DNA from: a virus
Length of the DNA stretch: 14,756 bases
Virus record (IMG/VR): IMGVR_UViG_3300021057_000107
Span: 1-14,756 of that record
Strand: one strand, 5' to 3'
Numbering within the stretch: the first letter of the stretch is position 1; every line of letters starts with the position of its first letter. Below are positions 1 through 13,929 of this stretch, one piece after another. The translations under genes were made by a program, and so were the position numbers. The notes below the pieces were generated by a model. It was not told the DNA's origin. It saw nothing but the letters and a program-made list of their open reading frames with translations, and searched no databases.

Positions 1-127
1 GCTCAACGGCCCATTTAAAATCTGCCTTGTCTGTACTGTTCAGCATCTCCAAAAACTTTTGCTTTCCTTTTGCCGTTTTCCAGGCTTCAAGCAGATCATA
101 TTTCAACTGTTGGAACTTATTTTTAGA
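1..127. repeat. Terminal direct repeat, copy 1, identical to 14630..14756 (circular-closure overlap or short terminal redundancy)
   Basis: Read directly: gctcaacggcccatttaaaatctgcc...ggaacttatttttaga occurs at both ends in the same orientation with no mismatch seen. Length is 127. Confidence 0.95.
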
Positions 128-259
128 GCCAACAGCACGGCCACCATGAGGAATACCCTTTAGCCAGCGGCCTTTTTCATCCCTAAAGCTCTTCGTTAAG
201 TCGCCTTTAGAGTCGTTTAATTTTGACGTTTCAATTATTTCAGGCTTTAGTTCATCCAT
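1..259 (-). CDS. 5' part of a junction-spanning 125-aa ORF; putative small terminase-like or DNA-binding packaging protein
   Basis: ATG at 259 has AAGGAG (271..266) 6 nt upstream. My hand translation, MDELKPEIIETSKLNDSKGDLTKSFRDEKGRWLKGIPHGGRAVGSKNKFQQL, runs off position 1 in frame with the 14511..14735 track ORF, whose first M is really an internal TTG Leu codon. The basic GRxxGSKNK motif followed by a helical ...AILPKE segment recalls DUF5681-type small-terminase-like phage proteins. That similarity is recalled, not searched. Confidence 0.5.
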   Translation of the reverse strand, partial: MDELKPEIIETSKLNDSKGDLTKSFRDEKGRWLKGIPHGGRAVGSKNKFQQLKYDLLEAWKTAKGKQKFLEMLNSTDKADFKWAVE

Positions 260-269
260 GCATAGCTCC

Positions 270-803
270 TTAAGTATCTAATAAATGACTAGTACTTAAA
301 CCTTCACTTTGACGGTAACTGTTACTTTTACTTGTATCCAAGGCATAGTCTATTGATAGGGTATCCATAGGCTCTCTATTGGTGTCTTTTAATGGCTTTT
401 GAATAAGCGCTCGTTGAAAAATATCCTTATCAACATTTAAATATCTTAAAATCTTATCAATATCGAAGTCCCTTGCTCTTTGCTGGATATTCCGGCAGAT
501 GGCTTTGTGAACGGTCTTTTTTAGGTTTATAGGAGCATTCCGTTGATCTTCTATGTGATCTTTAAGCCAAAGCCATTTATTTTCACGCCAGTAATACTTT
601 TGAATCTCTTGCATTAATGGCTCGATCTTTTCTTCAGGGATACGCGTAAAATAAGCAAAATGTTTTGGATTATACTGAATAAATCCGGCAGTGTCGCAAC
701 GGTCATTTAAGTAATAAAGCAAATACCCCGCCTCTGGACTTAAATTCTGATATTCTTCAAGCTCCCATTTAGTTTTGACGCTAAACTTGATATCACCGCT
801 CAA
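270..803 (-). CDS. Hypothetical protein, 177 aa, TTG start; possibly replication-associated by context
   Basis: The start is TTG at 803, with AGGAGG (815..810) 6 nt upstream. It overlaps the upstream TGA as TTGA (800..803). The first in-frame ATG is only at codon 64. I recognise no motif, and the functional guess rests only on coupling to the CHC2 zinc-finger gene. Confidence 0.7.
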   Translation of the reverse strand: MSGDIKFSVKTKWELEEYQNLSPEAGYLLYYLNDRCDTAGFIQYNPKHFAYFTRIPEEKIEPLMQEIQKYYWRENKWLWLKDHIEDQRNAPINLKKTVHKAICRNIQQRARDFDIDKILRYLNVDKDIFQRALIQKPLKDTNREPMDTLSIDYALDTSKSNSYRQSEGLSTSHLLDT

Positions 804-1273
804 ATAACACCTCCTACAAGAAAATTAACTGCCTGGTTAAAATTTAATCCTTTAATATTCATCACAAAATCGATGCTTGTGCCATCAGCCCCACAGCCAA
901 AACAGTGATAACGGTTTTTTTGGTCAATTATCATTGAAGCTTTATCCTCGCGATGAAACGGACAGCAAACCCAATTCTTCTGGCCTTTTTGTTTTATGCC
1001 TTCAAAGTCAAATAAATTCAGTATAGAAACCGCCTTAGCCCTAAGAATCTTCTGTCCAAAGTTCATTGTGTTGTCAGCATGGCCGTTATCTGCAACCAGG
1101 CTTTTAATGCGTTGTAGGTAGGTCGTCATTTCATTTGATTGTTCTTTTTCGGCAATAGTATCTTTCACCTCTGGAAAAATCTTAAGGAGATCAAGCGTGT
1201 CTGGGTATTCGTACTGGTATTCGTACCAATCGCCTTCGTTTACGTCATCCATGTATTTAATTGTTTGTCGCAT
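800..1273 (-). CDS. Stand-alone CHC2 (DnaG-type) zinc-finger protein, 157 aa, with no TOPRIM or primase catalytic domain
   Basis: The C-terminal segment WVCCPFHREDKASMIIDQKNRYHCFGCGADGTSIDFV carries the CPFH...YHCFGCGxxG signature of the primase zinc-binding domain (compare E. coli DnaG CPFHNEKTPSF...YHCFGCGAHG). The protein ends about 25 aa after the finger. There is no obvious SD before the ATG at 1273. Confidence 0.8.
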   Translation of the reverse strand: MRQTIKYMDDVNEGDWYEYQYEYPDTLDLLKIFPEVKDTIAEKEQSNEMTTYLQRIKSLVADNGHADNTMNFGQKILRAKAVSILNLFDFEGIKQKGQKNWVCCPFHREDKASMIIDQKNRYHCFGCGADGTSIDFVMNIKGLNFNQAVNFLVGGVI

Positions 1274-1358
1274 ATTTACTTAGGTGGGATTTTGCAACTA
1301 GGAGCATTACATCAATAAGTTTGGCTCTCTTTTGCAATGATTTACTCATACCCTTACC

Positions 1359-2825
1359 TTAAAAGTTATAGTCTATTTCAACATTTCCTTTAGGGAAAAC
1401 CCGAATAATCTTAATCAAAGCGTTTATCATATCTCGCTTTTCTTGTAGAGAAGCTTCTTCCCAATTTTGGTCAAACTCCCTATAAAATCTTTCTTTCTGC
1501 TTAAAATCCTCTTTTTTGGCCTTTTCTACCTCAAGTGAAGCCTTCAAAGAAGAGATATCCCCTTCAAGCTCCTTAATTTCCTTCCGGATTGCCTCGTATC
1601 TCTCCAAGAATTCATCTGGGGGGCTGTCTTGCTTCTCAAAAACCTGTAACCATTTCTTTTTAGCTAAATCTTTCGATTTTAGGGTTTTTTGTTTGTTTTC
1701 GATCTGTGCCTTAATATGGTCTATTTCCTGCTGTGAAGTTACATTTAAATGCCGCTGCATATATCTACTGTCATTTAAAAGCGCTCCAATATGCTCAAAG
1801 ATCATTTCCTTTACCGAACCTTCAAGCTTTTCTTTCTTATGAAATTTACGATGTTCACAGTCTCTTTTCTTGTTCCTTCGGTGGCAAGATGAACAGGCAT
1901 AATATCCTAAGCGACCTCTGTCCTTCTTTTGACTTGGAACCTCTCTTTTAACCATTTCACGCCCACAAAGACCACACTTAGCAACGTCTCTTAAAATAAA
2001 ATCCGGGGCCACACATGACCAACTCGCTTCGTAGCCTTTAAAGTTTGCGTCTCTAATTCTCTGAACTTCTTCAAACATAGGAATTTCGATAATGGGCGGG
2101 TGCTTTTGTTCATAGATAATTTCTTTAACTTTCATGCGTCCAGTATATTTAACATTCGTCAGTATTCGCATTATTTGCCTTCGATCAAGCTTAACCCTTG
2201 CGCTTATGCCTCGCCTTTCTAATTCAATTCGTACGCGGTTATCACTCTTATACTGCAAATACAATTTATAAATAAGCCTGACAATTTCTGCATCTTCCTC
2301 GACTATAACAAATCTTTTCTCAATGGTTTTATATCCAAAGGGCGGTTCTGATCCAAAATTTGTTCCATCACGCTGAACCTTCGTATATCTTCCAGTAATC
2401 ATACGCTCAGCGATATTGTCTCTTTCCATTTGAGCAAATACAGCAATTATGCCCATTATTGCCTCAGAAAACTTGGAGCTTGTATCAAAAGGCTCTGTAA
2501 CAGATTTATAGGTGACGCCGTAATTCTTAAACTCTTGCAGTAGTTCCAGAGTATCCCGTGCTGTTCTACTTAAACGATCTTGTTTCCACACAAATAAATG
2601 CTTAACTCTTCCGCGCCTTATATCTTGCCGCAGTCGTTCAAGTGAGGGTCTATCTACAAATGTAGCCCCACTGGAAGTATCAATATAGAAATCTTGTTCG
2701 GAAAGCTCTAAACCTTGTGACCTTGCAAAAGAAGAGATTCGATCTTTTTGTGTGTCTATTGAGGCGCGGTCTTCCCGAGCTTGTTCAAGAGTGCTGACTC
2801 GTATGTAAGCTTTGCTTGTTTTCAT
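1359..2825 (-). CDS. Large serine recombinase (phage-integrase type), 488 aa
   Basis: The N-terminal resolvase catalytic motif is KAYIRVSTLEQ (Ser11), with the LFVWKQDRLSR motif following. There is a central recombinase domain and a Cys-rich zinc ribbon, CGLCGREM...YYACSSCHRRNKKRDCEH. The long charged C-terminal coiled coil (about residues 360-470) is typical of large serine integrases. Confidence 0.95.
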   Translation of the reverse strand: MKTSKAYIRVSTLEQAREDRASIDTQKDRISSFARSQGLELSEQDFYIDTSSGATFVDRPSLERLRQDIRRGRVKHLFVWKQDRLSRTARDTLELLQEFKNYGVTYKSVTEPFDTSSKFSEAIMGIIAVFAQMERDNIAERMITGRYTKVQRDGTNFGSEPPFGYKTIEKRFVIVEEDAEIVRLIYKLYLQYKSDNRVRIELERRGISARVKLDRRQIMRILTNVKYTGRMKVKEIIYEQKHPPIIEIPMFEEVQRIRDANFKGYEASWSCVAPDFILRDVAKCGLCGREMVKREVPSQKKDRGRLGYYACSSCHRRNKKRDCEHRKFHKKEKLEGSVKEMIFEHIGALLNDSRYMQRHLNVTSQQEIDHIKAQIENKQKTLKSKDLAKKKWLQVFEKQDSPPDEFLERYEAIRKEIKELEGDISSLKASLEVEKAKKEDFKQKERFYREFDQNWEEASLQEKRDMINALIKIIRVFPKGNVEIDYNF

Positions 2826-2937
2826 TAACCTTGCTTGTTTTGTTTATTCTTCTTTCGACGGGTTTTTGATAAATCTTCCAGAAATCATTTTCTGCTGTTT
2901 CTTTAATATTCAAAAACTTAGCTCTTGCCTTAATCAT
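2785..2937 (-). CDS. Possible 50-aa basic micro-ORF coupled to the tyrosine recombinase stop (speculative; candidate accessory or directionality factor)
   Basis: It is absent from the track because it is under 60 aa. The ATG at 2937 overlaps the upstream TGA as ATGA (2934..2937), and GGAGGAG lies just upstream inside the end of the recombinase gene. My translation is MIKARAKFLNIKETAENDFWKIYQKPVERRINKTSKVNENKQSLHTSQHS. Its last 41 nt overlap the large serine recombinase start in another frame, which argues against it. Confidence 0.3.
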   Translation of the reverse strand: MIKARAKFLNIKETAENDFWKIYQKPVERRINKTSKVNENKQSLHTSQHS

Positions 2938-4571
2938 TTCTCCTCCTTTATTGGATTAAAGTATCTCCGGCTTTTTATTAACCATGCCGGAGGATTCTTA
3001 ATTATTTCTTGTACGTCAGACAGAATAACTTGATTCCTCGCCCGCGTTGAGTCACTTTTAATTAACCCTTGCTTTACATATTTATGGGCCGTTGTTAAAG
3101 AAATTCCCAATATCTTCCCCGCCTCTTCAACGGAAATATGATCCTTGCTTACATTCTGAGTTCTTTTCTGGTTAGCATAGAACTTTATTAACCATTCTGG
3201 CTTTGCCTGCAGGATGAGATCAATTTCGTTTTTGCTTAACTCCTTTGCTATGCCGTCATTTCTAACCTTGCTCAAATACCCCTTCTTAACCCAATCTTTT
3301 AACGTCATAACCGAAGTCTTGATATACTTAGCAGCTTCAGCGAACGTCAAGTAAGGATCTTTTGCTCTTTCTTCGGCTGCTTCGCGTAAAATATCCGCTG
3401 TAGTTTTCTTCTTGGCTTCATTAAGTCTCTGCTTTCTCCCTGCTACCTGTTCCTTTAGCCATGCCACACGACGCTCTAAAATGGCAACGTCCTTCTCTGT
3501 GACAAATTCGGAATCATCCTGGACGCCAAGACTTTTTCTTATTTTTTCGTAACCTTCGGTTATTTCATCCTCTTGTTTCTGACGTAGAACATCTTTTCCA
3601 CCAAAAAGCAAAGCATGATCTGCAAACATTTTTTGTGGACTAACATGTGTGTATACTTCGGTCGTTGAGATGCAGCTATGTCCTAATAATTCTTTAATCT
3701 CCAGGGTATTTGCTCCCCCCTCCAACAAATGCGTTGCAAAGGCGTGACGAAATAAATGAGGATGAACACGCTTATTCACTTTTTCCATTAAGGCATATTG
3801 CTTCATTTGTAAACCAACACGTGCTTTATGCAGTTTTTTGCCTTCGCCACTTCCTGCAACGGTAAGAAACACTTTACATTCGGGAAGTAAATCCTCTTTC
3901 TTCTTTGTTTTGTTGTAAGTAGAAATGGCTAGATTTGCCCGACGATTGATAAATACAATTCGTTGTTTAGAGCCTTTGCCAGTGACAACCGCTGATCCAT
4001 CCGATAAATTAAGGTCCTTATTTTCCATATTAAGCACCTCGCTTACTCGGCAACCAGTGCTGTAAAAAGTTTCTAGTAAAGCCCAGTCGCGCAATAACCG
4101 AATTAATGGAGCATTAATGATCTTACAAACTTCATTGACGCTTAGAACATTAGGAAGTGGCCTTTGCAGTTTGGGAAGATCCATTAATAGCCAGTTTGCA
4201 GTACTTGGGATAACTTCATTTCTGGCTAAGAAATTTCCGTAACCACGAAGAATAGTTATGATTCGATGTCTAAGATTTGGCGTAAGGTTGGAAATTTGAC
4301 CTAAAAACTCTCTGACGATTGACCTATCAATTTGATTAACGTTCTTTAAACCATTCTTATTGGTGAATTTTTGGAATCTTCCAAGATAACATTGGTAGGC
4401 TCTTATTGTACTATTTGATAAATTCTTGATCTCACAATCGGCAAGGTAACTCTTAATTGATTTATTTATTGAGTTACTGACAGGAAAAGGTAATTGTAAT
4501 GACCTTTTCTTATTTAGAAGACGAATAATCTCCTGGTGGGTTTCCCTTTTATAAGCAATATGATTAGCCAT
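2934..4571 (-). CDS. Tyrosine recombinase (XerC/XerD-integrase family core) with a roughly 225-aa C-terminal extension carrying two tandem excisionase/MerR-like HTH repeats
   Basis: An N-terminal SAM-like core-binding segment (YLADCEIKNLSNSTIRAYQCYLGRF) is present. A full catalytic set is readable: R174 (STGCRVSE), GKGSKQR, H272-x-x-R275 (HPHLFRHAFATHLL), H298 (LLGHS) and Y307 (TEVYTHV). Residues 321-545 add a coiled coil and two related roughly 57-aa modules, YLTFAEAAKYIKTSVMTLKDWVKKGYL...KPEWLIKF and HISVEEAGKILGISLTTAHKYVKQGLI...PPAWLIKS. Confidence 0.92.
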   Translation of the reverse strand: MANHIAYKRETHQEIIRLLNKKRSLQLPFPVSNSINKSIKSYLADCEIKNLSNSTIRAYQCYLGRFQKFTNKNGLKNVNQIDRSIVREFLGQISNLTPNLRHRIITILRGYGNFLARNEVIPSTANWLLMDLPKLQRPLPNVLSVNEVCKIINAPLIRLLRDWALLETFYSTGCRVSEVLNMENKDLNLSDGSAVVTGKGSKQRIVFINRRANLAISTYNKTKKKEDLLPECKVFLTVAGSGEGKKLHKARVGLQMKQYALMEKVNKRVHPHLFRHAFATHLLEGGANTLEIKELLGHSCISTTEVYTHVSPQKMFADHALLFGGKDVLRQKQEDEITEGYEKIRKSLGVQDDSEFVTEKDVAILERRVAWLKEQVAGRKQRLNEAKKKTTADILREAAEERAKDPYLTFAEAAKYIKTSVMTLKDWVKKGYLSKVRNDGIAKELSKNEIDLILQAKPEWLIKFYANQKRTQNVSKDHISVEEAGKILGISLTTAHKYVKQGLIKSDSTRARNQVILSDVQEIIKNPPAWLIKSRRYFNPIKEEK

Positions 4572-5112
4572 GATTTTTATTCTGGTATCTCAGTAAGTAA
4601 CCTGATTTTCTTCTTCGCCCTTTATCCTTGCTGCCCTGCGGCCTCCCTAAATCACGACCCTTCGCCTTCAATCTGGCTCTTGCACTAACAAGTCCAGCCC
4701 TTGTTCGCTCGCTGATTCTTTTTCGTTCCTGCTGGGCAACCCAACTAAATATTGCCAGCAAAAGCTGCCCTAATCCTTCGTCACGCGTGTCTAGCCAACT
4801 TTCCTGTAATGATTTAAGATCAACCCCATTGCGCTTTAACCGTTCAATGTAACCTAAGGTATTGCTAATTCCTTCACGAGAAAGGCGATCTAACGACCAC
4901 AAAAGAACTAAATCAAACTTCCTTTTGTCTGCATCTTCAAGCATACGTCTAAACTCCGCACGATCTCCATTACTACCGCTTGCCAAATCAACATATTCGT
5001 CAATAATCTCGCCGCCTAAGGCATCTGCATAATTCCTAAGAGGAATTAATTGATTCTGAGGGTCTTGACTTTCATCATTTTTTGAAACCCGGCAATAGAT
5101 AGCAATTTTCAT
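4564..5112 (-). CDS. Small serine recombinase (resolvase/invertase catalytic domain), 182 aa, lacking the usual C-terminal HTH
   Basis: The sequence shows MKIAIYCRVSKNDESQDPQNQ (Ser10), LLWSLDRLSR and the E-helix AQQERKRISERTRAGL. After GRP (residues 156-158) only a 24-aa basic tail remains (QGSKDKGRRRKSGYLLRYQNKNHG). The start overlaps the upstream stop as ATGA (5109..5112), with GGAG 7 nt upstream. The 3' end overlaps the tyrosine recombinase start by 8 nt. Confidence 0.9.
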   Translation of the reverse strand: MKIAIYCRVSKNDESQDPQNQLIPLRNYADALGGEIIDEYVDLASGSNGDRAEFRRMLEDADKRKFDLVLLWSLDRLSREGISNTLGYIERLKRNGVDLKSLQESWLDTRDEGLGQLLLAIFSWVAQQERKRISERTRAGLVSARARLKAKGRDLGRPQGSKDKGRRRKSGYLLRYQNKNHG

Positions 5113-5297
5113 ATGCAGTCTCCATTAAATTTCTTTTTATCAAAAACATTGTCTATGATTTTTTCCGCTTCATTTAATAATAAATATTCGCGACAGGCCT
5201 CCTCAATTAAGATCTGAGTTGCTTTGTCCAACATTGCAATTATCGGTGCGGGTTTCGATTCTGGCGGCTTTGCCTTTTTCCTGCTATTCTTTTTCAT
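5109..5297 (-). CDS. Hypothetical 62-aa protein with a lysine-rich N-terminus
   Basis: I prefer the ATG at 5297 (MKKNSRKKAKPP...) over the track's TTG at 5312, because it forms an ATGA overlap with the XRE gene stop (5294..5297). It is chained by another ATGA to the resolvase gene. I recognise no motif. Confidence 0.6.
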   Translation of the reverse strand: MKKNSRKKAKPPESKPAPIIAMLDKATQILIEEACREYLLLNEAEKIIDNVFDKKKFNGDCI

Positions 5298-5533
5298 CGT
5301 TGCTCCCGGCAAGTTGTAAGGCCTGATCCAAAAAGTGACGGATCAATTCGAGCTGGATCAACACCAAGAATTTTTGCAATAGTGATAACTTCACCCGTAC
5401 TGGGCGTACTCCTATTGGTTTCATACCGCGTTAAACGCGCCTCTTTTATTCCTGATTTCTCCGCAAGCTTGCGCTGGGTTAATTCGGCCTTTAACCGAAA
5501 CACTCGAATATTTTGACCTATACGATTTTCCAT
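5294..5533 (-). CDS. XRE / Cro-C1-type HTH regulator, 79 aa; first gene of the long leftward operon (Cro-like position)
   Basis: IRVFRLKAELTQRKLAEKSGIKEARLTRYETNRSTPSTGEVITIAKILGVDP is a classic HTH_3 pattern. AAGGAGG lies 4 nt upstream of the ATG at 5533. Confidence 0.88.
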   Translation of the reverse strand: MENRIGQNIRVFRLKAELTQRKLAEKSGIKEARLTRYETNRSTPSTGEVITIAKILGVDPARIDPSLFGSGLTTCREQR

Positions 5534-5573
5534 TTTTCCTCCTTGTTAAAACTTTCTTTATTAACCTTTAGAC

Positions 5574-5602
5574 AAAAAAAATCGACTCGATTTTCTAGTC
5601 GA
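5574..5602 (-). terminator. Intrinsic-terminator-like hairpin plus U8 tract in the leader of the leftward operon (alternatively an operator palindrome)
   Basis: The minus strand reads G-TCGACT-AGAAAATCG-AGTCGA-TTTTTTTT. That is a 6-bp perfect stem (5597..5602 with 5582..5587), a 9-nt loop, then eight U (plus-strand A run 5574..5581). The stem is short and only half GC, so it would be weak. Confidence 0.35.
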
Positions 5603-5673
5603 CAAACTTTCTATTAATGCTAAGATTATTAAATTGTTTTGGTTTTGCTTTCCGCATAATTATCTCTGGAATT

Positions 5674-5753
5674 TGGTAATATTTCATTACTATGGTAATA
5701 ATATATCACCCAACAAAACATTTGTCAATAATTGACTGGTAATTTTTTATCAC
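5674..5753. promoter_or_regulatory. Three 17-bp operator-like direct repeats in the divergent control region
   Basis: O1 is 5674..5690 TGGTAATATTTCATTAC. O2 is 5693..5709 TGGTAATAATATATCAC. O3 is 5737..5753 TGGTAATTTTTTATCAC. TGGTAAT is invariant, and the right end is TATCAC in O2 and O3. O2 covers the predicted leftward -10. O3 fills the rightward promoter spacer. Confidence 0.55.
5700..5728 (-). promoter_or_regulatory. Predicted leftward sigma70-type promoter
   Basis: On the minus strand, TTGACA (5728..5723) is followed by a 17-nt spacer and TATATT (5705..5700). This implies a leader of about 160 nt before the 79-aa XRE gene. Confidence 0.5.
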
Positions 5754-5759
5754 TATAAT
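5732..5759 (+). promoter_or_regulatory. Predicted rightward sigma70-type promoter driving a leaderless mRNA
   Basis: TTGACT (5732..5737) is followed by a 16-nt spacer and TATAAT (5754..5759). The A of the ATG at 5766 is the 7th nt after the -10, and no SD lies between them. This promoter sits back-to-back with the leftward -35, 3 bp apart. Confidence 0.65.
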
Positions 5760-5765
5760 CAGCTT

Positions 5766-6065
5766 ATGAACGTCACATGGAAGGAAGTTGCATCTGAAAT
5801 TCGAAAAAAGCGTAGGCTCTTAGATATAACTCAAGAAGAGTTCGCTAAAATGATTCATACTGGACAATCTTTTGTCGCGCAGATGGAGAAAGGCGAAAAA
5901 GTGCCCTCTATAGAGGTTGCTAAGAAGATTGCTAAGGAACTTGATATAGACTTTAACCGAATTAAGAATGCCATTATACTGAAAAAAGCAGAACCATTTT
6001 CCGCACCCGCAGGATCAACGATCCAGATAAAAACTCATACACGTATAATCATTCCAAAGAAGTAA
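5766..6065 (+). CDS. XRE-type HTH regulator, 99 aa; the only plus-strand gene (CI-like position), with no peptidase domain
   Basis: IRKKRRLLDITQEEFAKMIHTGQSFVAQMEKGEKVPSIEVAKKIAKELDID is an HTH_3 pattern. The gene is transcribed divergently from the 79-aa XRE gene. Confidence 0.88.
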   Translation: MNVTWKEVASEIRKKRRLLDITQEEFAKMIHTGQSFVAQMEKGEKVPSIEVAKKIAKELDIDFNRIKNAIILKKAEPFSAPAGSTIQIKTHTRIIIPKK

Positions 6066-6109
6066 AATAGGTTTGGTTTGCATTCTTCTCACTTCGCAAA
6101 TGAACGTAA

Positions 6110-6514
6110 TTATCCATGATTATATAGAGTAAAATTCTTATCTATCCATAATATGTGAAAAATTCTTCCCAATTTAAAGCCAACCATTGGAGCCTGACCT
6201 ATACAACGAAAAGCAATCATATCAACATCCTCTGTTACCTTAGCAGGAATCGACACTTTTAAAGCATTGCGAGCTATTTTTTCGTAACCAAGGCCGTCCC
6301 GCGGAGCTAATCTTAATTCCTTCCATGTCAATTTGCTTCTCTTATAGAGAGCCATTGCAAAATGAGCCTTTTGGTCTTTTTGACATGAATGGACACAATA
6401 TCCGTCAACCATAAATTCTAAAGAAAATATTGGAGTTTGATCGTCAGATTTGTCGGAGGGAACGTAATGCGGTTGGATTCTTCCAGTGTTTAGTTTAGGC
6501 TCGCGAAATGTCAC
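6110..6514 (-). CDS. Unrecognised 134-aa protein immediately downstream of a Panacea-domain antitoxin; candidate toxin
   Basis: A GTG start at 6514 lies 3 nt after the upstream TAA (6518..6520) with no separate SD, which suggests coupling. The C-terminus FRCIGQAPMVGFKLGRIFHILWIDKNFTLYNHG loosely recalls the terminal beta strands of RelE/ParE-like folds. That is weak and by eye only. Confidence 0.6.
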   Translation of the reverse strand: MTFREPKLNTGRIQPHYVPSDKSDDQTPIFSLEFMVDGYCVHSCQKDQKAHFAMALYKRSKLTWKELRLAPRDGLGYEKIARNALKVSIPAKVTEDVDMIAFRCIGQAPMVGFKLGRIFHILWIDKNFTLYNHG

Positions 6515-6517
6515 GAA

Positions 6518-6976
6518 TTATTCAACAACAAGGGTCTTAAAATATTCTTTCATTGAAGCGTGAGTGATAACCTCAACGCCAGCACCCTTTTCAAATGCTT
6601 CTTTCCAAGGAGCCTCTTCGTGAGTTAAATTTCTTAATTTCCAGGCGGAGAATTGACCAAAAACTCTATATACTTCATCCAAAAGGTCTTGAACTTTTTT
6701 ATCATAAATTGATAAGTCTAATTTATCGGGAGCAGGAATACTATCCGCACCATAATCTCTATATTTTCGATACAAGGACGGTATCACAGGACCATGTTGC
6801 CATGCCTCAATCTCCTCAGTAAACAAAGGCTCATTAAACATAGCCAAATGAAATCCTTGAGCATAATAACAAAGTTTCTGTAATTTAAGATTTGAGATCA
6901 TATCCCCTGCTTCAGGATCATTTTTGGCAAGAAAATAATTAGCAATATCTTCGACTGATAATTGGCGGGTAGGCAT
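6518..6976 (-). CDS. Panacea / DUF4065 (SocA, GepA-like) antitoxin-domain protein, 152 aa
   Basis: NLKLQKLCYYAQGFHLAMFNEPLFTEEIEAWQHGPVIPSLYRKY matches the family hallmark (LQKLLYYAQG...IEAW.HGPV...Y). AGGAG (6989..6985) lies upstream of the ATG at 6976. Confidence 0.85.
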   Translation of the reverse strand: MPTRQLSVEDIANYFLAKNDPEAGDMISNLKLQKLCYYAQGFHLAMFNEPLFTEEIEAWQHGPVIPSLYRKYRDYGADSIPAPDKLDLSIYDKKVQDLLDEVYRVFGQFSAWKLRNLTHEEAPWKEAFEKGAGVEVITHASMKEYFKTLVVE

Positions 6977-7002
6977 AAATATTTCTCCTATAAAGAGTGT
7001 AC

Positions 7003-7031
7003 AATATAGCGTAAAATTGTCAACTAGTCAA
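7003..7031 (-). promoter_or_regulatory. Predicted promoter of the antitoxin-toxin pair
   Basis: On the minus strand, TTGACT (7031..7026) is followed by a 17-nt spacer and TATATT (7008..7003). The leader to the SD is about 20 nt. A GTCAAC direct repeat (7019..7024 and 7027..7032) overlaps the -35 region. Confidence 0.55.
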
Positions 7032-7078
7032 CAGGTAAGAGTCTTGGGGTCATTTATTATAATTTAACTCTTTACTGT
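7031..7078. repeat. Imperfect 12-bp inverted repeat with a 24-bp spacer (48 bp overall) between terL and the TA module
   Basis: ACAGGTAAGAGT (7031..7042) pairs with ACTCTTTACTGT (7067..7078). The reverse complement of the right arm is ACAGTAAAGAGT, which matches 10 of 12 positions. Confidence 0.5.
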
Positions 7079-7141
7079 TAAAGAACAAGCAAAAACAGAT
7101 AAATTTAAACTTTTAACCAAAAAGAAGCGTCCTTTTCCCTT

Positions 7142-8533
7142 TTATCTTAATCCTAATTCCTTAAATGGATTCCAATTATCGTTTGATGAATATTGAGGTT
7201 GTCTAAAATGTGTATATTGCCTGTCTTGATCGTCCTTTACAGAATCAATAAGACTGGCCGCCATACAAAGCGAATCGAATAAATTTGGTGATTTAATTTT
7301 ATATTTATTACGCATCTCCTCCTTGCTGATTAATATCTTTCTGCCGTCATTGGCATATTTAAAACGGACGGTCATCATTTCCTGCACAATTTCCTCCGTT
7401 AGCCCACCTATCCAACCACGTGAAATATACTCCTTGAGTTTGTAAGCGGCTGCGGTGCGAGGATTCACATAATCGGGGTTCTTGTCCTTATCTAAAACAG
7501 GATTTCGGAAAGGCTCATAATTATTTAACCTATGCCCGCAAGTAATTGAATCAAAAGGCCCGCTTCCAAGGCCGTCAACGTCAATGATAGATCTTTCTGC
7601 ATTATGCTGCTTTGAAAGATTAATGATCCGACCAGTTGTATAATCAAGGTCTTTGTGTTCCCAAGTTTCTGAATGGACTACCATCCAATGCAAACGATTT
7701 ACTTGCTGTAGAACAACGCACGCGCTTTTGTCGGCTCCATATCGGGCCACATCAAATCCGGCAATTCGTAAACCATAGCCCGGACTAGGCGAGATTTCCT
7801 TCTTTGCCTCCATTAACTCTGAAAATCTATAAACAAGATCGTCACTTTCTGTTTCTTCAAAGCTGTTTAAAACATACCTACGATAGTGCGCCGGAGCGTC
7901 AATCTCCTTTCTTCTTAAATCCTGCACAAAGTCTTCACGGAGGTTCTTCTCATTCGCAAAACTGTTTGCCGTCAAACAATGGTAAACATCATTAATATAC
8001 TCAAATTCGCCCGTTGCTGAATTAATCGTATTTACCGTTTTTGCGCCATTAATCCATAACCTCCAAACCCAATTATGCCCATTAGCGTTTGCAATAACAC
8101 AAATAGGGCATACATTTGCTCCGTTATTCTGACGCATACGATCACGAAGAAACTGAAACGGCGTATCATCGTCAAATTCTTCCGCCTGTTCAATGCCGCA
8201 AATACCAAGGTTAAGATTTTTAAGGACCCTTAATTCATCGGCATGACGGAACATAATTAGTGATCCATTGTCCAAACGATAATTTTTGTCGACCGGAATT
8301 TTTTCTTCATAGTATTTCTCGAAGTCAACCATTGTTGAATCCCGCAAGTCGGTAAATTCTTTACGAACAATTAATCCCGTTGTTCTCTTGTATTTTGCAC
8401 AATAGTTAACGATCTTGTTTATCAATAACATCGTTTTTCCAGTTCCAACGGCTGAAATTAAGCAAGGGAATTTTGCCTCGCTATAAAGAAACCTATATTG
8501 ATAATTCCCCTTATCAACATTAAATGTTTGCAT
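7142..8533 (-). CDS. terL: Terminase large subunit, 463 aa
   Basis: The ATPase half shows Walker A SAVGTGKT, then GLIVRKEFTDLRDS, a Walker B-like LGICGIEQAEE and a coupling-like ANANG. The RNaseH-like nuclease acidic motifs are AGFDVARYGADKSA, IIDVDGLGSGPFD and SPNLFDSLCMA. Order and spacing are typical of tailed-phage TerL. Confidence 0.93.
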   Translation of the reverse strand: MQTFNVDKGNYQYRFLYSEAKFPCLISAVGTGKTMLLINKIVNYCAKYKRTTGLIVRKEFTDLRDSTMVDFEKYYEEKIPVDKNYRLDNGSLIMFRHADELRVLKNLNLGICGIEQAEEFDDDTPFQFLRDRMRQNNGANVCPICVIANANGHNWVWRLWINGAKTVNTINSATGEFEYINDVYHCLTANSFANEKNLREDFVQDLRRKEIDAPAHYRRYVLNSFEETESDDLVYRFSELMEAKKEISPSPGYGLRIAGFDVARYGADKSACVVLQQVNRLHWMVVHSETWEHKDLDYTTGRIINLSKQHNAERSIIDVDGLGSGPFDSITCGHRLNNYEPFRNPVLDKDKNPDYVNPRTAAAYKLKEYISRGWIGGLTEEIVQEMMTVRFKYANDGRKILISKEEMRNKYKIKSPNLFDSLCMAASLIDSVKDDQDRQYTHFRQPQYSSNDNWNPFKELGLR

Positions 8534-11500
8534 TTACCTGATCCTTTTATAAAGTTCTAAGACTTCAAGATTTAAAAGACCTGACTTCTTTGCTTCGGAT
8601 AATTTGTTAAGCAACTCTTCACCTTCAAGGCCTTCGGTTATTTCAAGAACCATACCGACACGGGCGGATACTTTTGCTTTATCTAGAATCTTATCTATAT
8701 TTTTTGCCTTTAACTCATCGTCGGTGTCTTCGTAAGAGTCCATTTGCATATAAGAAGAAATCTTATCAAAGGCTATTGCTCCGGCGTTTTGCCAAAGTTC
8801 CGTGTTCTGTTCTGGCGTTAATATGTCATAGCCTTCACGGCCTCCCAACAAAGTAGTCGATATTTCAAAACCCAGATCTGTTAGCCTCCGTAACTCCTGA
8901 ACAATGGGGTCTTTTATTTCCGTCATCGGTCTTGTAGGATCAGCCATGATTTCAAAGAAGTTTTCTGGAATGATCCGTTCTCTTCCTAGGACATCAATCT
9001 GTGGCTCTAGGCTGCTTCTAAGAAACGGAATCCTTGAAGCAATTGCATTTGATATGTTTTCAACCCGACGTTCTGTTTTGTCTGTTGCCTTTGCAATATC
9101 CGCTATTATCGTTGGCACAAATGAAGAGATGAGCCCAGAGGTGAAATACTCTGCAGATCGTTCTGGGTCGGTTAATGCGTCGATAGCCGAAGACATCCCC
9201 TTAAGAAACGTTTGCTCTGAGAAAGACTTTGCGCTTCCAAAGATCGTCTTTGATATTGCTTCTGTTGGGCTTCCTGATTCTTGAAGTCTTTTCGCAAACT
9301 GCCCGCCGATTAAGATAAGGTTTCCTGCAGGGCCTAAGACCTGAATTGATCGCCATGTATCACCGATTTTGATTGAATTAGCTTTTCGATTTTCAAGCTT
9401 TGCTAATTCCTTAAGTCTTTCGGAAATCGGTCTATCAAGGGTCAAGTCGCCCCTGTTGTAAAGATCATAACCAAACCACAAAAGCGGAACGCCTAATAAA
9501 GCACGGCCCATTCCTTTTGAAAAGTCGCGTTGATCCCATTTTCCTTTTCCGATATTTTCAAGAGCCGTCTTTATAACTCCGGCAGGGCTGTAGTTGATAA
9601 TCTGCATTGCAACGGCTGAAGGCGTCTTACTGAATGGTAGGACAAATTCACCTCCTGGGATATTCTGAATCGCTCGACCAGCTTTTGATAAGAAAGTTTC
9701 GTTCTGGAAAGTTGCTGCTTCAGCATCGGAAACTGCTAAAACCAGAGTATCATCAGTTGGATTTTCGATAAGATTGTTAATATAAGTTTCGGCTTCCTTG
9801 CCTTTTAAACCTTTATTCTTTGCGGCGACAATGGCTTGCTCTGCGATAGAACGAGCTTTTGCACCGTAATAAAATATCTGATCTTCTGCGCCTAGAATCT
9901 TAAAGACTCCTTCTTCATAAGCCTGTAGACCTTTGGCAATTTTTCCTTTACCAAATGATACGCGACGGTAATCAAACTTACCTAAAACGTTTCGCTCATC
10001 GTAACCAGTTTTTAAGAATCGCCAGCCCTTTTCGAAACCTTCTTTGATACCACTAGAAAGCCCTCTGGTTGTAAAGGCAACGGCTCGCTTCCCAGTGAAT
10101 AACGAAACAACACTATCAACAGCAACGGCTGGAATATCTTTTAAAACTTCCGTACCGAAGGCATGAGAAGCGTTGCTGAATATATTCAAGCCTGAAGTTT
10201 TAATGCCTGTGAGTAATCCGGCTTTCCAAACAGTCGTGATTTTCTTGAGCAATGGCGTAGGCACAAGATCATTTAGATAGTCTTGCATCTCTTTCCATGC
10301 GACGGCCTTGGCTTCTCCGTCGGGAAGTTGTGATATTGCGGTGACTCTATCACGAATAAACCTTGCTTGTTCGCCAGTAAGTTCCGGGATTTTCTTTCGT
10401 AGACCAAACATACCAGCGTCTTTCTCGACTTCAGCGTTGTATCGTTTAATGGTTTGAGCTGCGAATTTGATCTGTCCTTCAGGCGTTTGACGTGAAAGAA
10501 TAGAAGCTGCCTGCACAGAACGGCCTAACTCGGTTAATCGAACAGCCATATCATTTCCTAACTCAGCCGCCCTCTCATAGAGAGCGTCAGCTACAGCAGG
10601 CTCCGTGGCTTTCTCAGCTAATTCGGTATAATGTTTTAACAACTCTGCCCCTGTAGCAATTGAAGCATCATCAGTCCCGGTTCTTGCCATTGTCTCAGCA
10701 AGAGCTAAGTCCTCTTGAATTAACGTTCTTGCCTTTTGTGCTAACTCATCAGTACTTCTGGGTACATATTGCCCTGAGACTTTTAATATCGGCAGTTCTT
10801 CTTTGATCGAAGTAATAAATTTCCTTTCTTTGTATCCTGGTTTTATCGTTTCGCCTGCGGCAGCTTTAGCAACGGTCACGGGGTCTGTTGCTGCCTTACC
10901 TGCAGTTTCTCCGACAGCCTTAATTGCGGCCTTTGGGTCATTCGGTGCAGGAACGCCAGTATATAACTTAGGACTCTTAAGATATTTATCAGCCCTTTGG
11001 AAAAAATAAGCCTGAACCTCTGGACGTTGCATATAGGCCCAGGCTTCTTCAGCGTTCATGTTCATTTTTTCCATCACAGTGGAATGAATTTTAGCGGTCG
11101 AGTTCCTAAGAAGATTTCTAGCAGCGTTGATTTGATAGTTTTCTATCATGACTGGAATACTTTGAAGACCGCCATAAATAAACAAATCTTCAATCGCTCC
11201 GGCAACTGCCCGAGGAATTAAAGCGGCGATGCCTCCTTCACGCTCTTTTTGCGTAAATGGTATTCGATCATGTGCGGTGATCTTTACCACCGAAGAAGGC
11301 ATAACAACCGCTTTGATAACATCAGCACCTAACTCGTCAGTCTGACCTGTCACAACGTCGCCAACAAAAGCCCGAACTGGTTCATAAATCCTACCTACCA
11401 GAGTTTCAAAAGCAGCATCAGCAAGCTTTAGACCTGGGTCTACTACGGCACGATTTGCTTTGAGCCTGGCTTCAGTGTCAATCTTTCCCGTCATTAAAAA

Positions 11501-11797
11501 TGAACCTGCATCTTTAACATCTTGGGCCATTGATTGACCTACACCTTTGACAAACTCCGGCACGGCCTTAATGGTTTCCTTTGCCTTTTTCTCCATTGCA
11601 AACCAATTTTCGTCCGAAATAATCGGCTCAGCTTGAGCTAATATCTGCATAATCGACTGACGCGGAGACTTTCCATACTCATTTATATTAATGTGATGCT
11701 GCACATCAATGTCGTGCATATCGCCGGGATAAGACAAAGACTTATTTTTATCTTCAAGATAAATTTCTTTATTAGGTAAAACGGTAATAGGTAGCAT
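8534..11797 (-). CDS. Giant 1087-aa protein of unknown function; possibly virion-associated or packaged, by position only
   Basis: The frame is uninterrupted over 3264 nt. Its ATG overlaps the upstream stop as TAATG (11795..11799), and its TAA directly abuts the terL ATG (TAAATG, 8531..8536). It is mostly helical and Ala/Lys-rich, with a low-complexity linker (APNDPKAAIKAVGETAGKAATDPVTVAKAAAGE) and hydrophobic patches near the C-terminal third. I found no catalytic motif. Confidence 0.85.
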   Translation of the reverse strand: MLPITVLPNKEIYLEDKNKSLSYPGDMHDIDVQHHININEYGKSPRQSIMQILAQAEPIISDENWFAMEKKAKETIKAVPEFVKGVGQSMAQDVKDAGSFLMTGKIDTEARLKANRAVVDPGLKLADAAFETLVGRIYEPVRAFVGDVVTGQTDELGADVIKAVVMPSSVVKITAHDRIPFTQKEREGGIAALIPRAVAGAIEDLFIYGGLQSIPVMIENYQINAARNLLRNSTAKIHSTVMEKMNMNAEEAWAYMQRPEVQAYFFQRADKYLKSPKLYTGVPAPNDPKAAIKAVGETAGKAATDPVTVAKAAAGETIKPGYKERKFITSIKEELPILKVSGQYVPRSTDELAQKARTLIQEDLALAETMARTGTDDASIATGAELLKHYTELAEKATEPAVADALYERAAELGNDMAVRLTELGRSVQAASILSRQTPEGQIKFAAQTIKRYNAEVEKDAGMFGLRKKIPELTGEQARFIRDRVTAISQLPDGEAKAVAWKEMQDYLNDLVPTPLLKKITTVWKAGLLTGIKTSGLNIFSNASHAFGTEVLKDIPAVAVDSVVSLFTGKRAVAFTTRGLSSGIKEGFEKGWRFLKTGYDERNVLGKFDYRRVSFGKGKIAKGLQAYEEGVFKILGAEDQIFYYGAKARSIAEQAIVAAKNKGLKGKEAETYINNLIENPTDDTLVLAVSDAEAATFQNETFLSKAGRAIQNIPGGEFVLPFSKTPSAVAMQIINYSPAGVIKTALENIGKGKWDQRDFSKGMGRALLGVPLLWFGYDLYNRGDLTLDRPISERLKELAKLENRKANSIKIGDTWRSIQVLGPAGNLILIGGQFAKRLQESGSPTEAISKTIFGSAKSFSEQTFLKGMSSAIDALTDPERSAEYFTSGLISSFVPTIIADIAKATDKTERRVENISNAIASRIPFLRSSLEPQIDVLGRERIIPENFFEIMADPTRPMTEIKDPIVQELRRLTDLGFEISTTLLGGREGYDILTPEQNTELWQNAGAIAFDKISSYMQMDSYEDTDDELKAKNIDKILDKAKVSARVGMVLEITEGLEGEELLNKLSEAKKSGLLNLEVLELYKRIR

Positions 11798-13212
11798 TAA
11801 AGATCCTCAAAGTTGATTTGTAGGTTATTAAAAGCTGTACTCACCGGCTTTTGATTTACCTTCTTGCCCTTAGCCTTACTTTCTTTCTTGTACGCTCCGA
11901 TGATTCTATTTCGATTTCCGACAAGGTTAGGAACATCGGGAAGCTGTGTCGTTGAAGGAAAATTTTTGCGAATGTAGTCTTTTTGAACAGTCTGCATGAC
12001 AACATCGGGGTCGGCATTTGGTTGCTTATCTAGACGTTGAAAGAAATTAAATACAATCTCATCTTCGTCTTCCGGAAAAGACTTGGAAGCCCAATCGCCC
12101 AAAGCTTGTGCAGAAGCTCTTATTGTGATTGTTCGGGAGTCAAGTGGATCGTAAGCACTCTTAACTAAATACTCTCTATCCTGCGGCGTTAAACTGCTAA
12201 TGCTTTCGATAATCTTTTGATTAACTTCTTTCCGCTTCTTGCCTTCAAGCTGAAGAGCTTTAATCTGGTTGTAAGATTGAAAGTCCGTTCTCTCTGCCGG
12301 AGCATCATAAATTGAAGCGATATATTTCTCGCCAAAATCTTTTCGAATACCCGTTGAAATAAGCAGATCTTTGACTTTTGTTTGCGTTACCGTACCGAAA
12401 TTTAAAAGTAAATCAGTTTCGTTCTGATCCTGATTAAGATTGACAGTATGGTCATTCAAAATTCTATTACGCCGAATGTGTAATTTTGTTTTCTCCAAAC
12501 GCTCTGCTCTCTCAGCATCGGTAAGATGAGCGTATTCACCATCCTTGCCAGCTTGTAACTGACTATAAACCCAGGAATTTTCTTGTTCCAAAGCTTGATC
12601 TTGCATAATATCTAAATCAACAGAGCCAAGACGATAATCGTCCAAAAGCTTTCTTCCTCCGGCCTCAGTAATCACACCACTGACCACGTTAGCCTCAATC
12701 AATTGCCCCATCTTTTTATCAATGTCTTGCCTTACGGATATCTTCGGTGCATTAGACTTTTCAAGAGACATATTACGCACGGTTTCTTCAAGATTTTGGT
12801 AAGCCTTGAAATGCTGCTTTTGTTTGAATATTCCTTCAATTTCAATTTTGGCAATAGCCAGGTCCTTCTTAAAATGCAAAGCAACATTCTCCCGAACCTG
12901 GGCGTTTTTTATCTGAGTTGGCGAAAGTTTTTCGGCTTTATTAAGTTCTTTTAAATATTTTTCAACGTTGTCGGGGTTTTGGTCTTCAAGAGCTTGCTGC
13001 TTAACTCTAGCGATATGCGTTGAAACCTCTGCACTTGTCTTATTGACTTGCATAACATCATTCGCATTAGACCAATCCTGAGCAATCTGATTGACAGTGT
13101 TAAGAAGGTTTTGATTTGCTTGTGCTGCTTGATCGACTTCATTACGAATTGGAGCTTGTAATTTACTTTCAATATTACGTTTTGATGTATATGTTGGTAA
13201 TGATGGTGACAT
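11797..13212 (-). CDS. 471-aa charged, coiled-coil-rich protein of unknown function (scaffold-like or internal-protein-like is only a guess)
   Basis: I prefer the ATG at 13212 (MSPSLPTYTSKRN...), which has GAAAGGAA upstream, over the track's TTG at 13272. The extra 20 codons are a translation of a GC-rich hairpin. The composition is Gln/Lys/Glu-rich and helical. Confidence 0.8.
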   Translation of the reverse strand: MSPSLPTYTSKRNIESKLQAPIRNEVDQAAQANQNLLNTVNQIAQDWSNANDVMQVNKTSAEVSTHIARVKQQALEDQNPDNVEKYLKELNKAEKLSPTQIKNAQVRENVALHFKKDLAIAKIEIEGIFKQKQHFKAYQNLEETVRNMSLEKSNAPKISVRQDIDKKMGQLIEANVVSGVITEAGGRKLLDDYRLGSVDLDIMQDQALEQENSWVYSQLQAGKDGEYAHLTDAERAERLEKTKLHIRRNRILNDHTVNLNQDQNETDLLLNFGTVTQTKVKDLLISTGIRKDFGEKYIASIYDAPAERTDFQSYNQIKALQLEGKKRKEVNQKIIESISSLTPQDREYLVKSAYDPLDSRTITIRASAQALGDWASKSFPEDEDEIVFNFFQRLDKQPNADPDVVMQTVQKDYIRKNFPSTTQLPDVPNLVGNRNRIIGAYKKESKAKGKKVNQKPVSTAFNNLQINFEDL

Positions 13213-13232
13213 GAATTCCTTTCTTGCCGTAA

Positions 13233-13256
13233 CCCCCGGCCTTTTCAAACCAGGGG
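13233..13256 (-). other. GC-rich hairpin in the short gap before the 471-aa gene
   Basis: Minus-strand RNA forms CCCCUGG (13256..13250) paired with CCGGGGG (13239..13233). That is a 7-bp stem including one G-U wobble, with a 10-nt loop. On the plus strand the same position would be a C-A mismatch. No U tract follows. Confidence 0.45.
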
Positions 13257-13276
13257 CTAGGCAGACACACAAATTG

Positions 13277-13384
13277 TTAAGATAAGCGGTCGTCGTTTCT
13301 AGCGTCGTTCAATGCGCTATTACGTCCGCTGTTTGAATAAGTACATAAACTAACGTCTTTGTTAAAAGTAATCACTGTATCCAT
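13277..13384 (-). CDS. 35-aa micro-ORF with a strong ribosome-binding site
   Basis: It is absent from the track because it is under 60 aa. AAAGGAGG lies 6 nt upstream of the ATG at 13384, immediately after the upstream gene's stop. My translation is MDTVITFNKDVSLCTYSNSGRNSALNDARNDDRLS, with TAA at 13277..13279. It fills an otherwise empty 125-nt gap in a tightly packed operon. Confidence 0.5.
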   Translation of the reverse strand: MDTVITFNKDVSLCTYSNSGRNSALNDARNDDRLS

Positions 13385-13398
13385 AGTTGCCTCCTTTC

Positions 13399-13929
13399 TT
13401 AACCAAGCTTGGGTGTGTACTTGTCGGAAGTTGGTATTGGTTTGTTTTGACTTAGAGAATCAGAAAAGCCGCTGCCTTGCTCTCCTCCTCCGTCCTCAAT
13501 GCGATAACCAGAGCCGGATTTAACTTCTTTATATCCGTAACCGATGCCAGTGTTATGATTGTCAACGTCCTCACTTACTCCCCTTGATCGGTTTCCCTCC
13601 ACAAGGTTTGATGATTTTCTTGCATCAGGCCCTTTGCCATACTCTGCATCTCCAGTTTGCTCTTTTATGATCTGAACCTTTTCAGCTTCATAAGTTGTAA
13701 TCCAGCCTTTTAAATTGCAGCCCTTACCACTGGCAAACCCTGCCTCCATCATGTTGACAAATCTTACGGCTCGATCTGATTCTTCAAGCATTGGAATATT
13801 CTCTTCATCAAACTGACCGCCCCAGTAAGCGTGTTTCTTGTTGGATCGAATCTTTTGAGCCCATGCTTTACATTCTTCTGGTGAAACATAAAGCTCTTCG
13901 TCATCTCCTGGTATTTCGTTGTAGTTCAT
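13399..13929 (-). CDS. Hypothetical 176-aa protein with a Gly/Ser-rich C-terminal tail
   Basis: I prefer the ATG at 13929 (MNYNEIPGDDEE...), with AGGAGA (13942..13937) 7 nt upstream. The track start at 13965 lacks an SD and overlaps the previous gene by 20 nt. I recognise no motif. Confidence 0.75.
   Translation of the reverse strand: MNYNEIPGDDEELYVSPEECKAWAQKIRSNKKHAYWGGQFDEENIPMLEESDRAVRFVNMMEAGFASGKGCNLKGWITTYEAEKVQIIKEQTGDAEYGKGPDARKSSNLVEGNRSRGVSEDVDNHNTGIGYGYKEVKSGSGYRIEDGGGEQGSGFSDSLSQNKPIPTSDKYTPKLG

Follow-up and report, generated by a model that had tools for sequence, protein, structure and literature searches.

The recombinase operon

The IMG/VR virus record IMGVR_UViG_3300021057_000107, analysed here over its whole length of 14,756 nucleotides (henceforth the window), is circular, since bases 1-127 are identical to bases 14630-14756. 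It is a complete temperate element, a 14.6-kb circle (14,629 bp), whose host is most likely an Omnitrophota bacterium, and its minus strand carries every gene except one. A reading made by a model from the sequence alone (henceforth the sequence-only reading) had pointed to positions 1359-5533, where genes for three mechanistically distinct site-specific recombinases would share one strand and one operon behind a Cro-like regulator of the XRE family; Pfam domain searches and a promoter scan bear this out. The genes and control features of this region are listed below (HTH: helix-turn-helix; ORF: open reading frame; attP: attachment site on the element).

5766-6065, plus strand: XRE99, divergent XRE-family regulator, repressor-like, 99 aa (HTH_3, 1.3e-14)
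5700-5759: switch region, with back-to-back promoters and three nearby ATTACCA operator-like repeats
5732-5759, plus strand: promoter toward XRE99, TTGACT-16-TATAAT, scored 11/12 in the consensus scan
5728-5700, minus strand: promoter toward the recombinase operon, TTGACA-17-TATATT, scored 11/12 in the consensus scan
5533-5294, minus strand: XRE79, Cro-like regulator, 79 aa, first gene of the operon (HTH_3, 5e-13)
5297-5109, minus strand: orf62, 62 aa, with ATGA overlaps at both ends
5112-4564, minus strand: small serine recombinase (SR), 182 aa (Resolvase domain alone, 3e-36)
4571-2934, minus strand: Xer-like tyrosine recombinase (YR), 545 aa (Phage_int_SAM_1, Phage_integrase at 2e-31, two HTH_17)
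2937-2785, minus strand: orf50, 50 aa, with an ATGA overlap with the YR stop and a 41-nt overlap with the LSR start
2825-1359, minus strand: large serine recombinase (LSR), 488 aa (Resolvase PF00239, 1.2e-31; Recombinase PF07508, 4e-12; Zn_ribbon_recom PF13408, 9e-8)
1274-1358: 85-bp spacer directly after the LSR stop, candidate attP for LSR by position only

XRE79, orf62, SR, YR, orf50 and LSR form one minus-strand operon driven by one promoter. Start and stop codons overlap at each junction: as read from the sequence, XRE79/orf62 and orf62/SR share ATGA, while SR and YR overlap by 8 nt (ATGGCTAA), exactly the chaining of the first four genes that had been described. The gene order given earlier was right for XRE79, orf62, SR, YR and LSR, but missed the 50-aa orf50 between the last two. 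The consensus scan of the minus strand from 5533 to 1359 found no strong internal promoter or terminator. Together the three recombinase genes occupy 3,654 nt, or 25% of the genome, in agreement with the earlier estimate, and the impression that their catalytic residues are intact is upheld by alignment of YR with XerD, by invariance of the SR residues in the SR family and by alignment of the LSR motif with TP901-1 (see below). What the three enzymes do in the element, and on which sites, we infer from sequence.

The ATTACCA motif of the switch region is specific to the window. XRE79 shares 44% identity with the XRE protein preceding SR in a related locus, L006 (related loci are designated by L numbers), and orf62 has no match in Pfam, PHROG, NCBIfam or PADLOC. 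PADLOC also returned no match for SR or LSR, and a weak, HTH-only match for YR. Between the switch promoter and the XRE79 start (5575-5690, minus strand) lies a 20-codon mini-ORF and, 3' of it, a hairpin, TCGACT...AGTCGA, with eight consecutive T residues after it; the hairpin was not called by the consensus scan because its loop is too long, and it may serve as an attenuator or terminator gating the recombinase operon. Repeat searches revealed no segment bounded by inverted repeats in the window, short repeats being at chance level, in accord with the sequence-only reading, which had seen no invertible segment either.

The large serine recombinase

LSR is the best-supported integrase of the element, and we consider it probable that it acts as such. 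The YIRVST motif aligns to the nucleophile motif YTRVST of the TP901-1 integrase, and residues 140-379 align to the C-terminal domain of the A118 integrase. Its relatives form a small clade at 47-53% identity, and their genomic context is informative: four of them lie at element ends in Omnitrophota contigs, each with a truncated comM-like gene alongside. L128 and L129 share the order XRE, SR (77% identical to the window SR), orf38, LSR (49%) and a truncated comM-like gene; this last gene, which encodes a ChlI domain, is on the opposite strand and is followed by host DUF212, LysM/YkuD and accA genes. In L127 the order is XRE, an SR-like gene, orf47, LSR (53%) and a comM fragment. As the L127 contig opens with a fragment of the gene for the terminase large subunit (TerL), 47% identical to the window TerL, the whole synteny of TerL, switch, SR, small ORF, LSR and attachment site matches the window. 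In L125 and L126 the LSR gene stands beside a host flank shared with the comM-like loci L127-L129.

The element-host junction was located 30-47 nt after the LSR stop in L125, L127 and L128, at the point where the ComM reading frames lose homology just after a conserved Lys-Lys pair; in these relatives one element-end junction, that on the truncated comM-like side, is seen. Serine-recombinase prophages, those of the Wolbachia phage WO, have been reported beside a Mg-chelatase-related gene (PMC5447182). We see about even chances that the target of the window LSR is likewise a comM-like gene. The search for integrated copies that the sequence-only reading had proposed yielded LSR relatives at comM-like junctions but no integrated copy of the exact element. 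The island at the comM-like site in L125 (positions 1-10000) carries a related LSR together with OLD-family/AAA_15, PD-(D/E)XK and HindIII-type restriction genes; a defence island that lacks the small SR thus makes use of this attachment site as well.

The small ORF that precedes LSR has the motif E..FW.I....VERR..KT in four loci, including L126, L127 and L128, and orf50 may serve LSR as a cofactor or else be a coupling ORF. The 85-bp spacer weakly resembles the comM core and contains an imperfect palindrome (1292-1337) with its centre at TT, 1314-1315; alignment of the spacer with the three junctions gave no clear attP by similarity. Since both the palindrome and the comM similarity were estimated to be at chance level, the attP assignment is positional only.

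The small serine recombinase family

SR comprises the serine recombinase catalytic domain, the E-helix and a conserved basic tail (GRP.G.KD..RRKSGY.LRY; family consensus GK.LGRP.GSKD..RRKSGY.LRY), with residues R8, S10, D75, R76, R79, E129 and R130 invariant in 41 family members. No HTH domain was matched in Pfam or NCBIfam; the alignments to Gin and gamma-delta resolvase stop at the GRP arm, and the protein ends about 25 residues later. In the AlphaFold2 (AF2) model built with 41 homologues the protein begins directly at the catalytic beta-strand, the E-helix spans residues 114-150, and the tail (residues 151-182) is unfolded and of low confidence, leaving no folded C-terminal domain. The lack of a DNA-binding domain had not been noticed in the sequence-only reading.

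The family search yielded 1,361 matches, the best 120 of which are 72-84% identical, 174-213 aa long and have the Resolvase domain alone. The family is large, with members 65-84% identical, found chiefly in Omnitrophota mobile elements, and within reference genomes it is likewise chiefly from Candidatus Omnitrophota. Bins of DPANN archaea and a deltaproteobacterial metagenome-assembled genome (MAG) contain more distant members (51-58% identical), so the family reaches beyond Omnitrophota, possibly into archaeal mobile elements. These distant loci (L034-L037, L139, L140) come from Woesearchaeota/Pacearchaeota bins, the deltaproteobacterial MAG and viral contigs, and in some of them the gene stands beside an MCM helicase gene. 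The SR-like protein of L127 is only 38% identical to the window SR and retains the same tail.

SR genes typically lie in a rightward early operon, often right behind a Cro-like XRE gene and opposite a divergent XRE gene. The placement of the recombinases under the switch, which had been called unusual, is therefore the normal setting for SR. A separate YR or LSR is present in the available flank of 24 of the 34 non-redundant SR loci (downstream on the same strand in 22); the conventional YR integrases directly adjoin tRNA genes in L006, L013 and L018. With a separate integrase flanking SR in so many loci, SR is an accessory gene of integrative elements and not the integrase.

No palindrome or flanking inverted repeat near the SR gene is conserved in the 27 loci searched for recombination sites, and with no conserved site near the gene a resolvase role for SR is a guess. 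An invertible segment or promoter inversion was considered and rejected: the short repeats in the window and in the 27 SR loci are at chance level and have no common position or sequence. Literature searches on Omnitrophota serine recombinases and on serine recombinases lacking a DNA-binding domain returned nothing relevant.

The tyrosine recombinase and its C-terminal extension

The 545-aa YR is composed of the following parts (wHTH: winged helix-turn-helix).

4227-4448, minus strand: SAM-like core-binding domain
3633-4148, minus strand: catalytic domain
2937-3596, minus strand: C-terminal extension, residues 326-545 (220 aa), a coiled-coil linker and two excisionase/MerR-type wHTH domains (HTH_17)

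In the alignment to E. coli XerD, the best PDB match, the residues R, K, H-x-x-R, H and Y are all present, and they are conserved in a five-member family alignment, save that P0366 has T for one motif histidine, which is not the nucleophile. YR scored 211.9 bits against TIGR02224 (cut-off 335) and 209.9 against TIGR02225 (cut-off 330); with scores below the cut-offs and a length of 545 aa rather than about 300, it is not predicted to be a XerC/XerD equivalog. The extension is the other feature absent from the sequence-only reading. Each of its wHTH domains is followed by a P(E/P)xWL(I/K)K motif, and the excisionase-domain model TIGR01764 matches residues 407-437. It is rare: an exhaustive search of 1.84 billion representative proteins produced 26 matches. 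The architecture of SAM_1, Phage_integrase and C-terminal HTH_17 is also present in the proteins P0361, P0377, P0366 and P0002. IMG/VR single-protein scans with YR and LSR as queries gave no match.

A long YR (31% identical) comes right after the SR-family gene (71% identical) of L130. L132 and L133 contain a long YR (39% identical), a tiny ORF, two excisionase-like (Xis-like) genes and a conventional integrase, which in L132 has a tRNA-Leu gene about 500 bp downstream. Downstream of SR (75% identical) in L134 come two separate genes, the first for a 252-aa wHTH protein matching residues 326-534 of the window YR, the second for a 210-aa protein matching the catalytic domain of the window YR; judged from these alignments, the two genes correspond to a split version of the fused window YR. 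An IMG/VR scan with the L134 wHTH protein retrieved itself only. L147, finally, has SR (73%), a 251-aa wHTH protein and a 297-aa Xer-like YR as the last genes of a terminase-bearing prophage, and the host genes dprA and aro come directly after YR, i.e. the prophage-host junction is at this point. L134 itself is a viral contig from IMG/VR whose length of 14.9 kb is close to that of the window. Over positions 1-13795 it encodes, in addition to the split cassette, an HK97 capsid protein, a D5 primase-helicase and a conventional integrase accompanied by two Xis-like genes, and it has the appearance of a satellite-type element that forms capsids.

No lambda-like arm motif is repeated in the non-coding regions of the window, and YR has no N-terminal arm-binding domain. 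A 26-bp near-perfect palindrome, GAAAAGGTAATT-GT-AATGACCTTTTC, lies at 4484-4509, just past the SR stop and within the 5' end of the YR gene. About 0.2-0.3 such palindromes are expected by chance. It was considered as a dif- or lox-like site of YR and rejected, as it has no counterpart in L130-L134, and we treat it as a chance occurrence or an RNA structure.

Modular cassettes and alternative explanations

Comparison of these loci shows that the trio is modular. SR is followed by a small ORF and LSR in L127, L128 and L129, and by wHTH and YR in L130, L134 and L147; the combination of wHTH and Xer-like YR is a recurrent cassette following SR. Elsewhere the slot after SR is filled by Xis and YR (L006, L014) or by LSR with or without a small ORF (L128, L136-L138, L030). 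Relative to L128, the window has a wHTH-YR cassette seamlessly inserted between SR and orf50-LSR. The three recombinases that had attracted attention are thus real, yet are better read as one accessory SR typical of the lineage plus two stacked integrase cassettes, each of which occurs alone in relatives, so that the element would carry two alternative integrases. We give this reading roughly even credence, and such stacking explains part of the surprise expressed in the sequence-only reading.

In this scheme all three parts would be driven from the Cro-side promoter of the XRE/XRE switch. SR might have an accessory role in recombination once the circle is excised and replicating, e.g. in the resolution of multimers or cointegrates, a function we favour because such elements carry replication modules. 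YR, as the fused form of the two-gene cassette, would be a second integration/excision module, its wHTH domains acting by arm binding or like an excisionase, and orf50 with LSR would constitute an independent second integrase cassette with its attP in the 85-bp spacer. The presence of two integrases could represent an intermediate of cassette exchange or a means to use two attachment sites.

Several observations weigh against the stacking of two integrases. No integrated copy of the exact element turned up, and attP of LSR is not pinned by sequence. The prophage of L147, whose junction position argues for an integrase role of the cassette, has its left end off the contig, where another integrase could lie, and in the window, L132 and L134 a further integrase accompanies the long or split YR, an arrangement equally compatible with a non-integrase role. 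As for SR, no integrase was found within 10 kb of its distant members in archaeal bins, and a search for conserved k-mers or repeated motifs within 0.9-1.2 kb of the gene in the 27 loci returned only A-rich low complexity. YR is either a second integrase, as its position in L147 and its excisionase-type domains suggest, or a Xer/Cre-like resolution enzyme, as suggested by its coexistence with an integrase in three elements. In the latter case LSR would be the sole integrase, the wHTH-bearing YR would serve Cre- or Xer-type multimer resolution and SR would have a further resolvase- or invertase-type role. The additional integrases in question are LSR in the window, a YR in L132 and a YR with two Xis-like genes in L134; the core of YR resembles XerC/XerD, and replication modules are borne by elements of such kind. 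We nevertheless regard this explanation as rather unlikely, given that the L147 cassette is the last before the host genes with no other integrase visible there, that excisionase-type wHTH domains are typical of integration/excision modules, and that the search for a dif- or lox-like site came out negative (palindromes having 11-bp arms around 6-8-bp spacers are at chance level, and none is conserved). Of the roles proposed in the sequence-only reading, integration at alternative sites and resolution of the circle stay viable, while inversion switching has found no backing in the repeat searches.

A different division of labour would have a MerR-like wHTH protein recruit SR to DNA and lend it DNA specificity, so that SR and the tandem-wHTH, Xer-like YR together would constitute an undescribed two-enzyme system for immediate-early rearrangement in small Omnitrophota integrative elements, separate from integration. 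SR itself lacks a DNA-binding domain, a wHTH of this type is fused in cis in IS607 transposases, the SR gene abuts or overlaps a wHTH-bearing gene in the window, L130, L134 and L147, small HTH_17 genes follow SR in L006, L014, L022, L028 and L029, and the split and fused arrangements argue that the wHTH protein and YR act together. On the other hand, the wHTH partner and a long YR are missing from most SR loci, in some of which the vicinity of SR is free of any HTH_17 gene (L019, L025 and L128, with its SR-orf38-LSR order), and an HTH_17 protein beside a YR is more simply a Xis partner; we are doubtful of both the recruitment of SR and the two-enzyme system, to the same degree. That one or both of the extra recombinases act chiefly as DNA-binding regulators of the switch would be in line with the position of their genes directly behind the Cro-like gene and with a precedent in SPbeta, where the LSR SprA is accompanied by a repressor with the tyrosine recombinase fold, MrpR (PMC10516654). 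MrpR, however, has lost most of its catalytic residues, keeping 3 of 7 (PMC10516654), whereas SR and YR retain all of theirs, conserved in their families save the one P0366 histidine; since every catalytic residue is kept, regulator-only roles are very unlikely. Least credible of all is an artefact, be it an assembly chimera, a recent nested mobile element or decaying copies. Relative to L128 and L129, the YR gene does form an extra block between SR and orf-LSR, but an independent assembly yielded the identical sequence, the protein is found on five contigs, the GC content is uniform across the region, and YR is joined to its neighbours by seamless start/stop overlaps on both sides; we reject artefact, decay and recent nested insertion on the strength of the identical assembly, the uniform base composition and the junctions. 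The two possibilities that the sequence-only reading had itself raised against the trio thus find no trace: the copies are not decayed, their catalytic residues being intact, and there is no sign of a recent insertion, the junctions being translationally coupled and flanking repeats not found.

Other genes and the nature of the element

The independent assembly mentioned above is 100% identical and circularly permuted; of the five contigs with the protein, which are 10-20 kb long, the one whose DNA was examined is circular. Besides the recombinase operon and the XRE/XRE switch, the element encodes TerL, a gene pair containing SocA and a CHC2 zinc-finger protein. None of 84 TerL-related loci has any of the three recombinases, hence the trio is not a property of the TerL lineage. 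Among GenBank phages no close relative was matched.

Within 7142-13272 TerL is recognisable, and no capsid, portal or tail gene is. The 1087-aa protein of this region has merely a weak match to "internal virion protein", and the 491-aa protein p491 has no match, its single-sequence AF2 model being unusable (pLDDT, the predicted local distance difference test score, of 45). Of the features of a capsid-forming (cf-PICI-like) satellite, TerL is thus found in the window, while capsid and portal are unrecognised and the p491 model gives no help. The window element could be a strongly diverged mini-phage or else a satellite.

The minus-strand genes at 6110-6976 probably constitute a toxin-antitoxin or defence pair. 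The first product, of 152 aa, has a SocA/Panacea domain, and the second, of 134 aa, is assigned to phrog_8366 and weakly matches NsnC in PADLOC; a pair of SocA and a 130-aa protein is also located near SR in L010/L013. The 157-aa protein encoded at 800-1273 has a CHC2 primase zinc finger without Toprim or any other primase catalytic domain. Comparable stand-alone CHC2 proteins stand beside D5- or DnaG/MCM-type replication genes in L134 and L145, that of L134 being 27% identical to the one in the window.

Significance

Each of the enzymes belongs to a known superfamily. What is new is the combination of SR, YR and LSR in one operon, the highly conserved SR family that lacks a DNA-binding domain and serves as an early gene in integrative elements of Omnitrophota, and the fused Xer-wHTH architecture; our literature searches retrieved no description of such a trio operon, of such an SR family or of a Xer-wHTH fusion. 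The loci offer a testable picture of integrase-module swapping in an almost unstudied phylum, in which a conserved early SR is combined with interchangeable cassettes (Xis and YR, wHTH and Xer-like YR, or ORF and LSR), and the window element holds two of them at once. Two enzyme types are brought out, a large, conserved family of serine recombinases without a DNA-binding domain and a rare fusion of a Xer-like recombinase to excisionase domains. As SR and YR are compact and LSR has a probable defined, comM-like target, they may be of interest as parts for genome engineering, and SR may offer insight into the in-trans targeting of serine recombinases. If SR were indeed recruited by a neighbouring wHTH protein, more than 1,000 clusters of the SR family would mark an uncharacterised recombination function.

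Comparison with known systems

LSR resembles the A118, TP901-1 and SPbeta SprA integrases in its Resolvase, Recombinase and zinc ribbon domains and in the position of its relatives' gene at the element end. In context the relatives come closest to the Wolbachia sr1WO prophages, where a serine recombinase lies by a Mg-chelatase-related gene; the relatives of LSR adjoin a truncated gene of the comM/Mg-chelatase type. Unlike the known large serine integrases, to whose characterised or named members it is 23-31% identical, LSR has a conserved, overlapping ORF of 38-50 aa in front and is co-transcribed with two other recombinases.

SR shares with Tn3/gamma-delta resolvase, Hin, Gin and Pin the catalytic domain, the E-helix, the GRP minor-groove arm and the catalytic residues. 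It differs from them in having a conserved basic tail, about 25 aa long, where these have a C-terminal HTH, in lacking an adjacent res-, hix- or gix-like site (27 loci having been searched for conserved sites), and in its location in the early operon of integrative elements instead of beside a transposase or an invertible segment. IS607 TnpA also pairs a serine recombinase catalytic domain with a wHTH of the MerR/HTH_17 type, as found in the SR neighbourhood; in IS607, however, the wHTH is N-terminal in the same protein, whereas SR has none, the wHTH domains are on neighbouring proteins and there is no tnpB gene. SR was rejected as an IS607 transposase, as it scores 48.7 bits (6e-13) against NF033518, for which the cut-off is 110, in a match confined to the catalytic part.

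YR is like XerC/XerD in its SAM-like core-binding domain and RKHRHY catalytic domain, and like lambda Int in having extra DNA-binding domains beyond the core. These form a C-terminal wHTH extension in YR, while lambda Int has an N-terminal arm-binding domain and a separate Xis. Assignment of YR as a lambda-type heterobivalent integrase was rejected on these grounds, the extra domains being C-terminal HTH_17 with no arm-binding domain at the N-terminus, as was its assignment as a MrpR/YopR-like repressor, owing to the full set of catalytic residues.

As a set of three co-oriented recombinase genes, the operon is reminiscent of RIT elements, in which three tyrosine recombinases of fixed subfamilies are bounded by inverted repeats, and of the TnpA/TnpB/TnpC trio of Tn554. 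A RIT element was rejected, since only one of the three window enzymes is a tyrosine recombinase and bounding or terminal inverted repeats were not found. Phage P1 carries two recombinases, Cre and Cin, and the window element is like P1 and SPbeta, where the tasks are divided, in uniting mechanistically different proteins of recombinase families in one temperate element. It departs from both in having no invertible segment and no catalytically lost member, and in that three recombinases are co-transcribed from the switch promoter within 14.6 kb.

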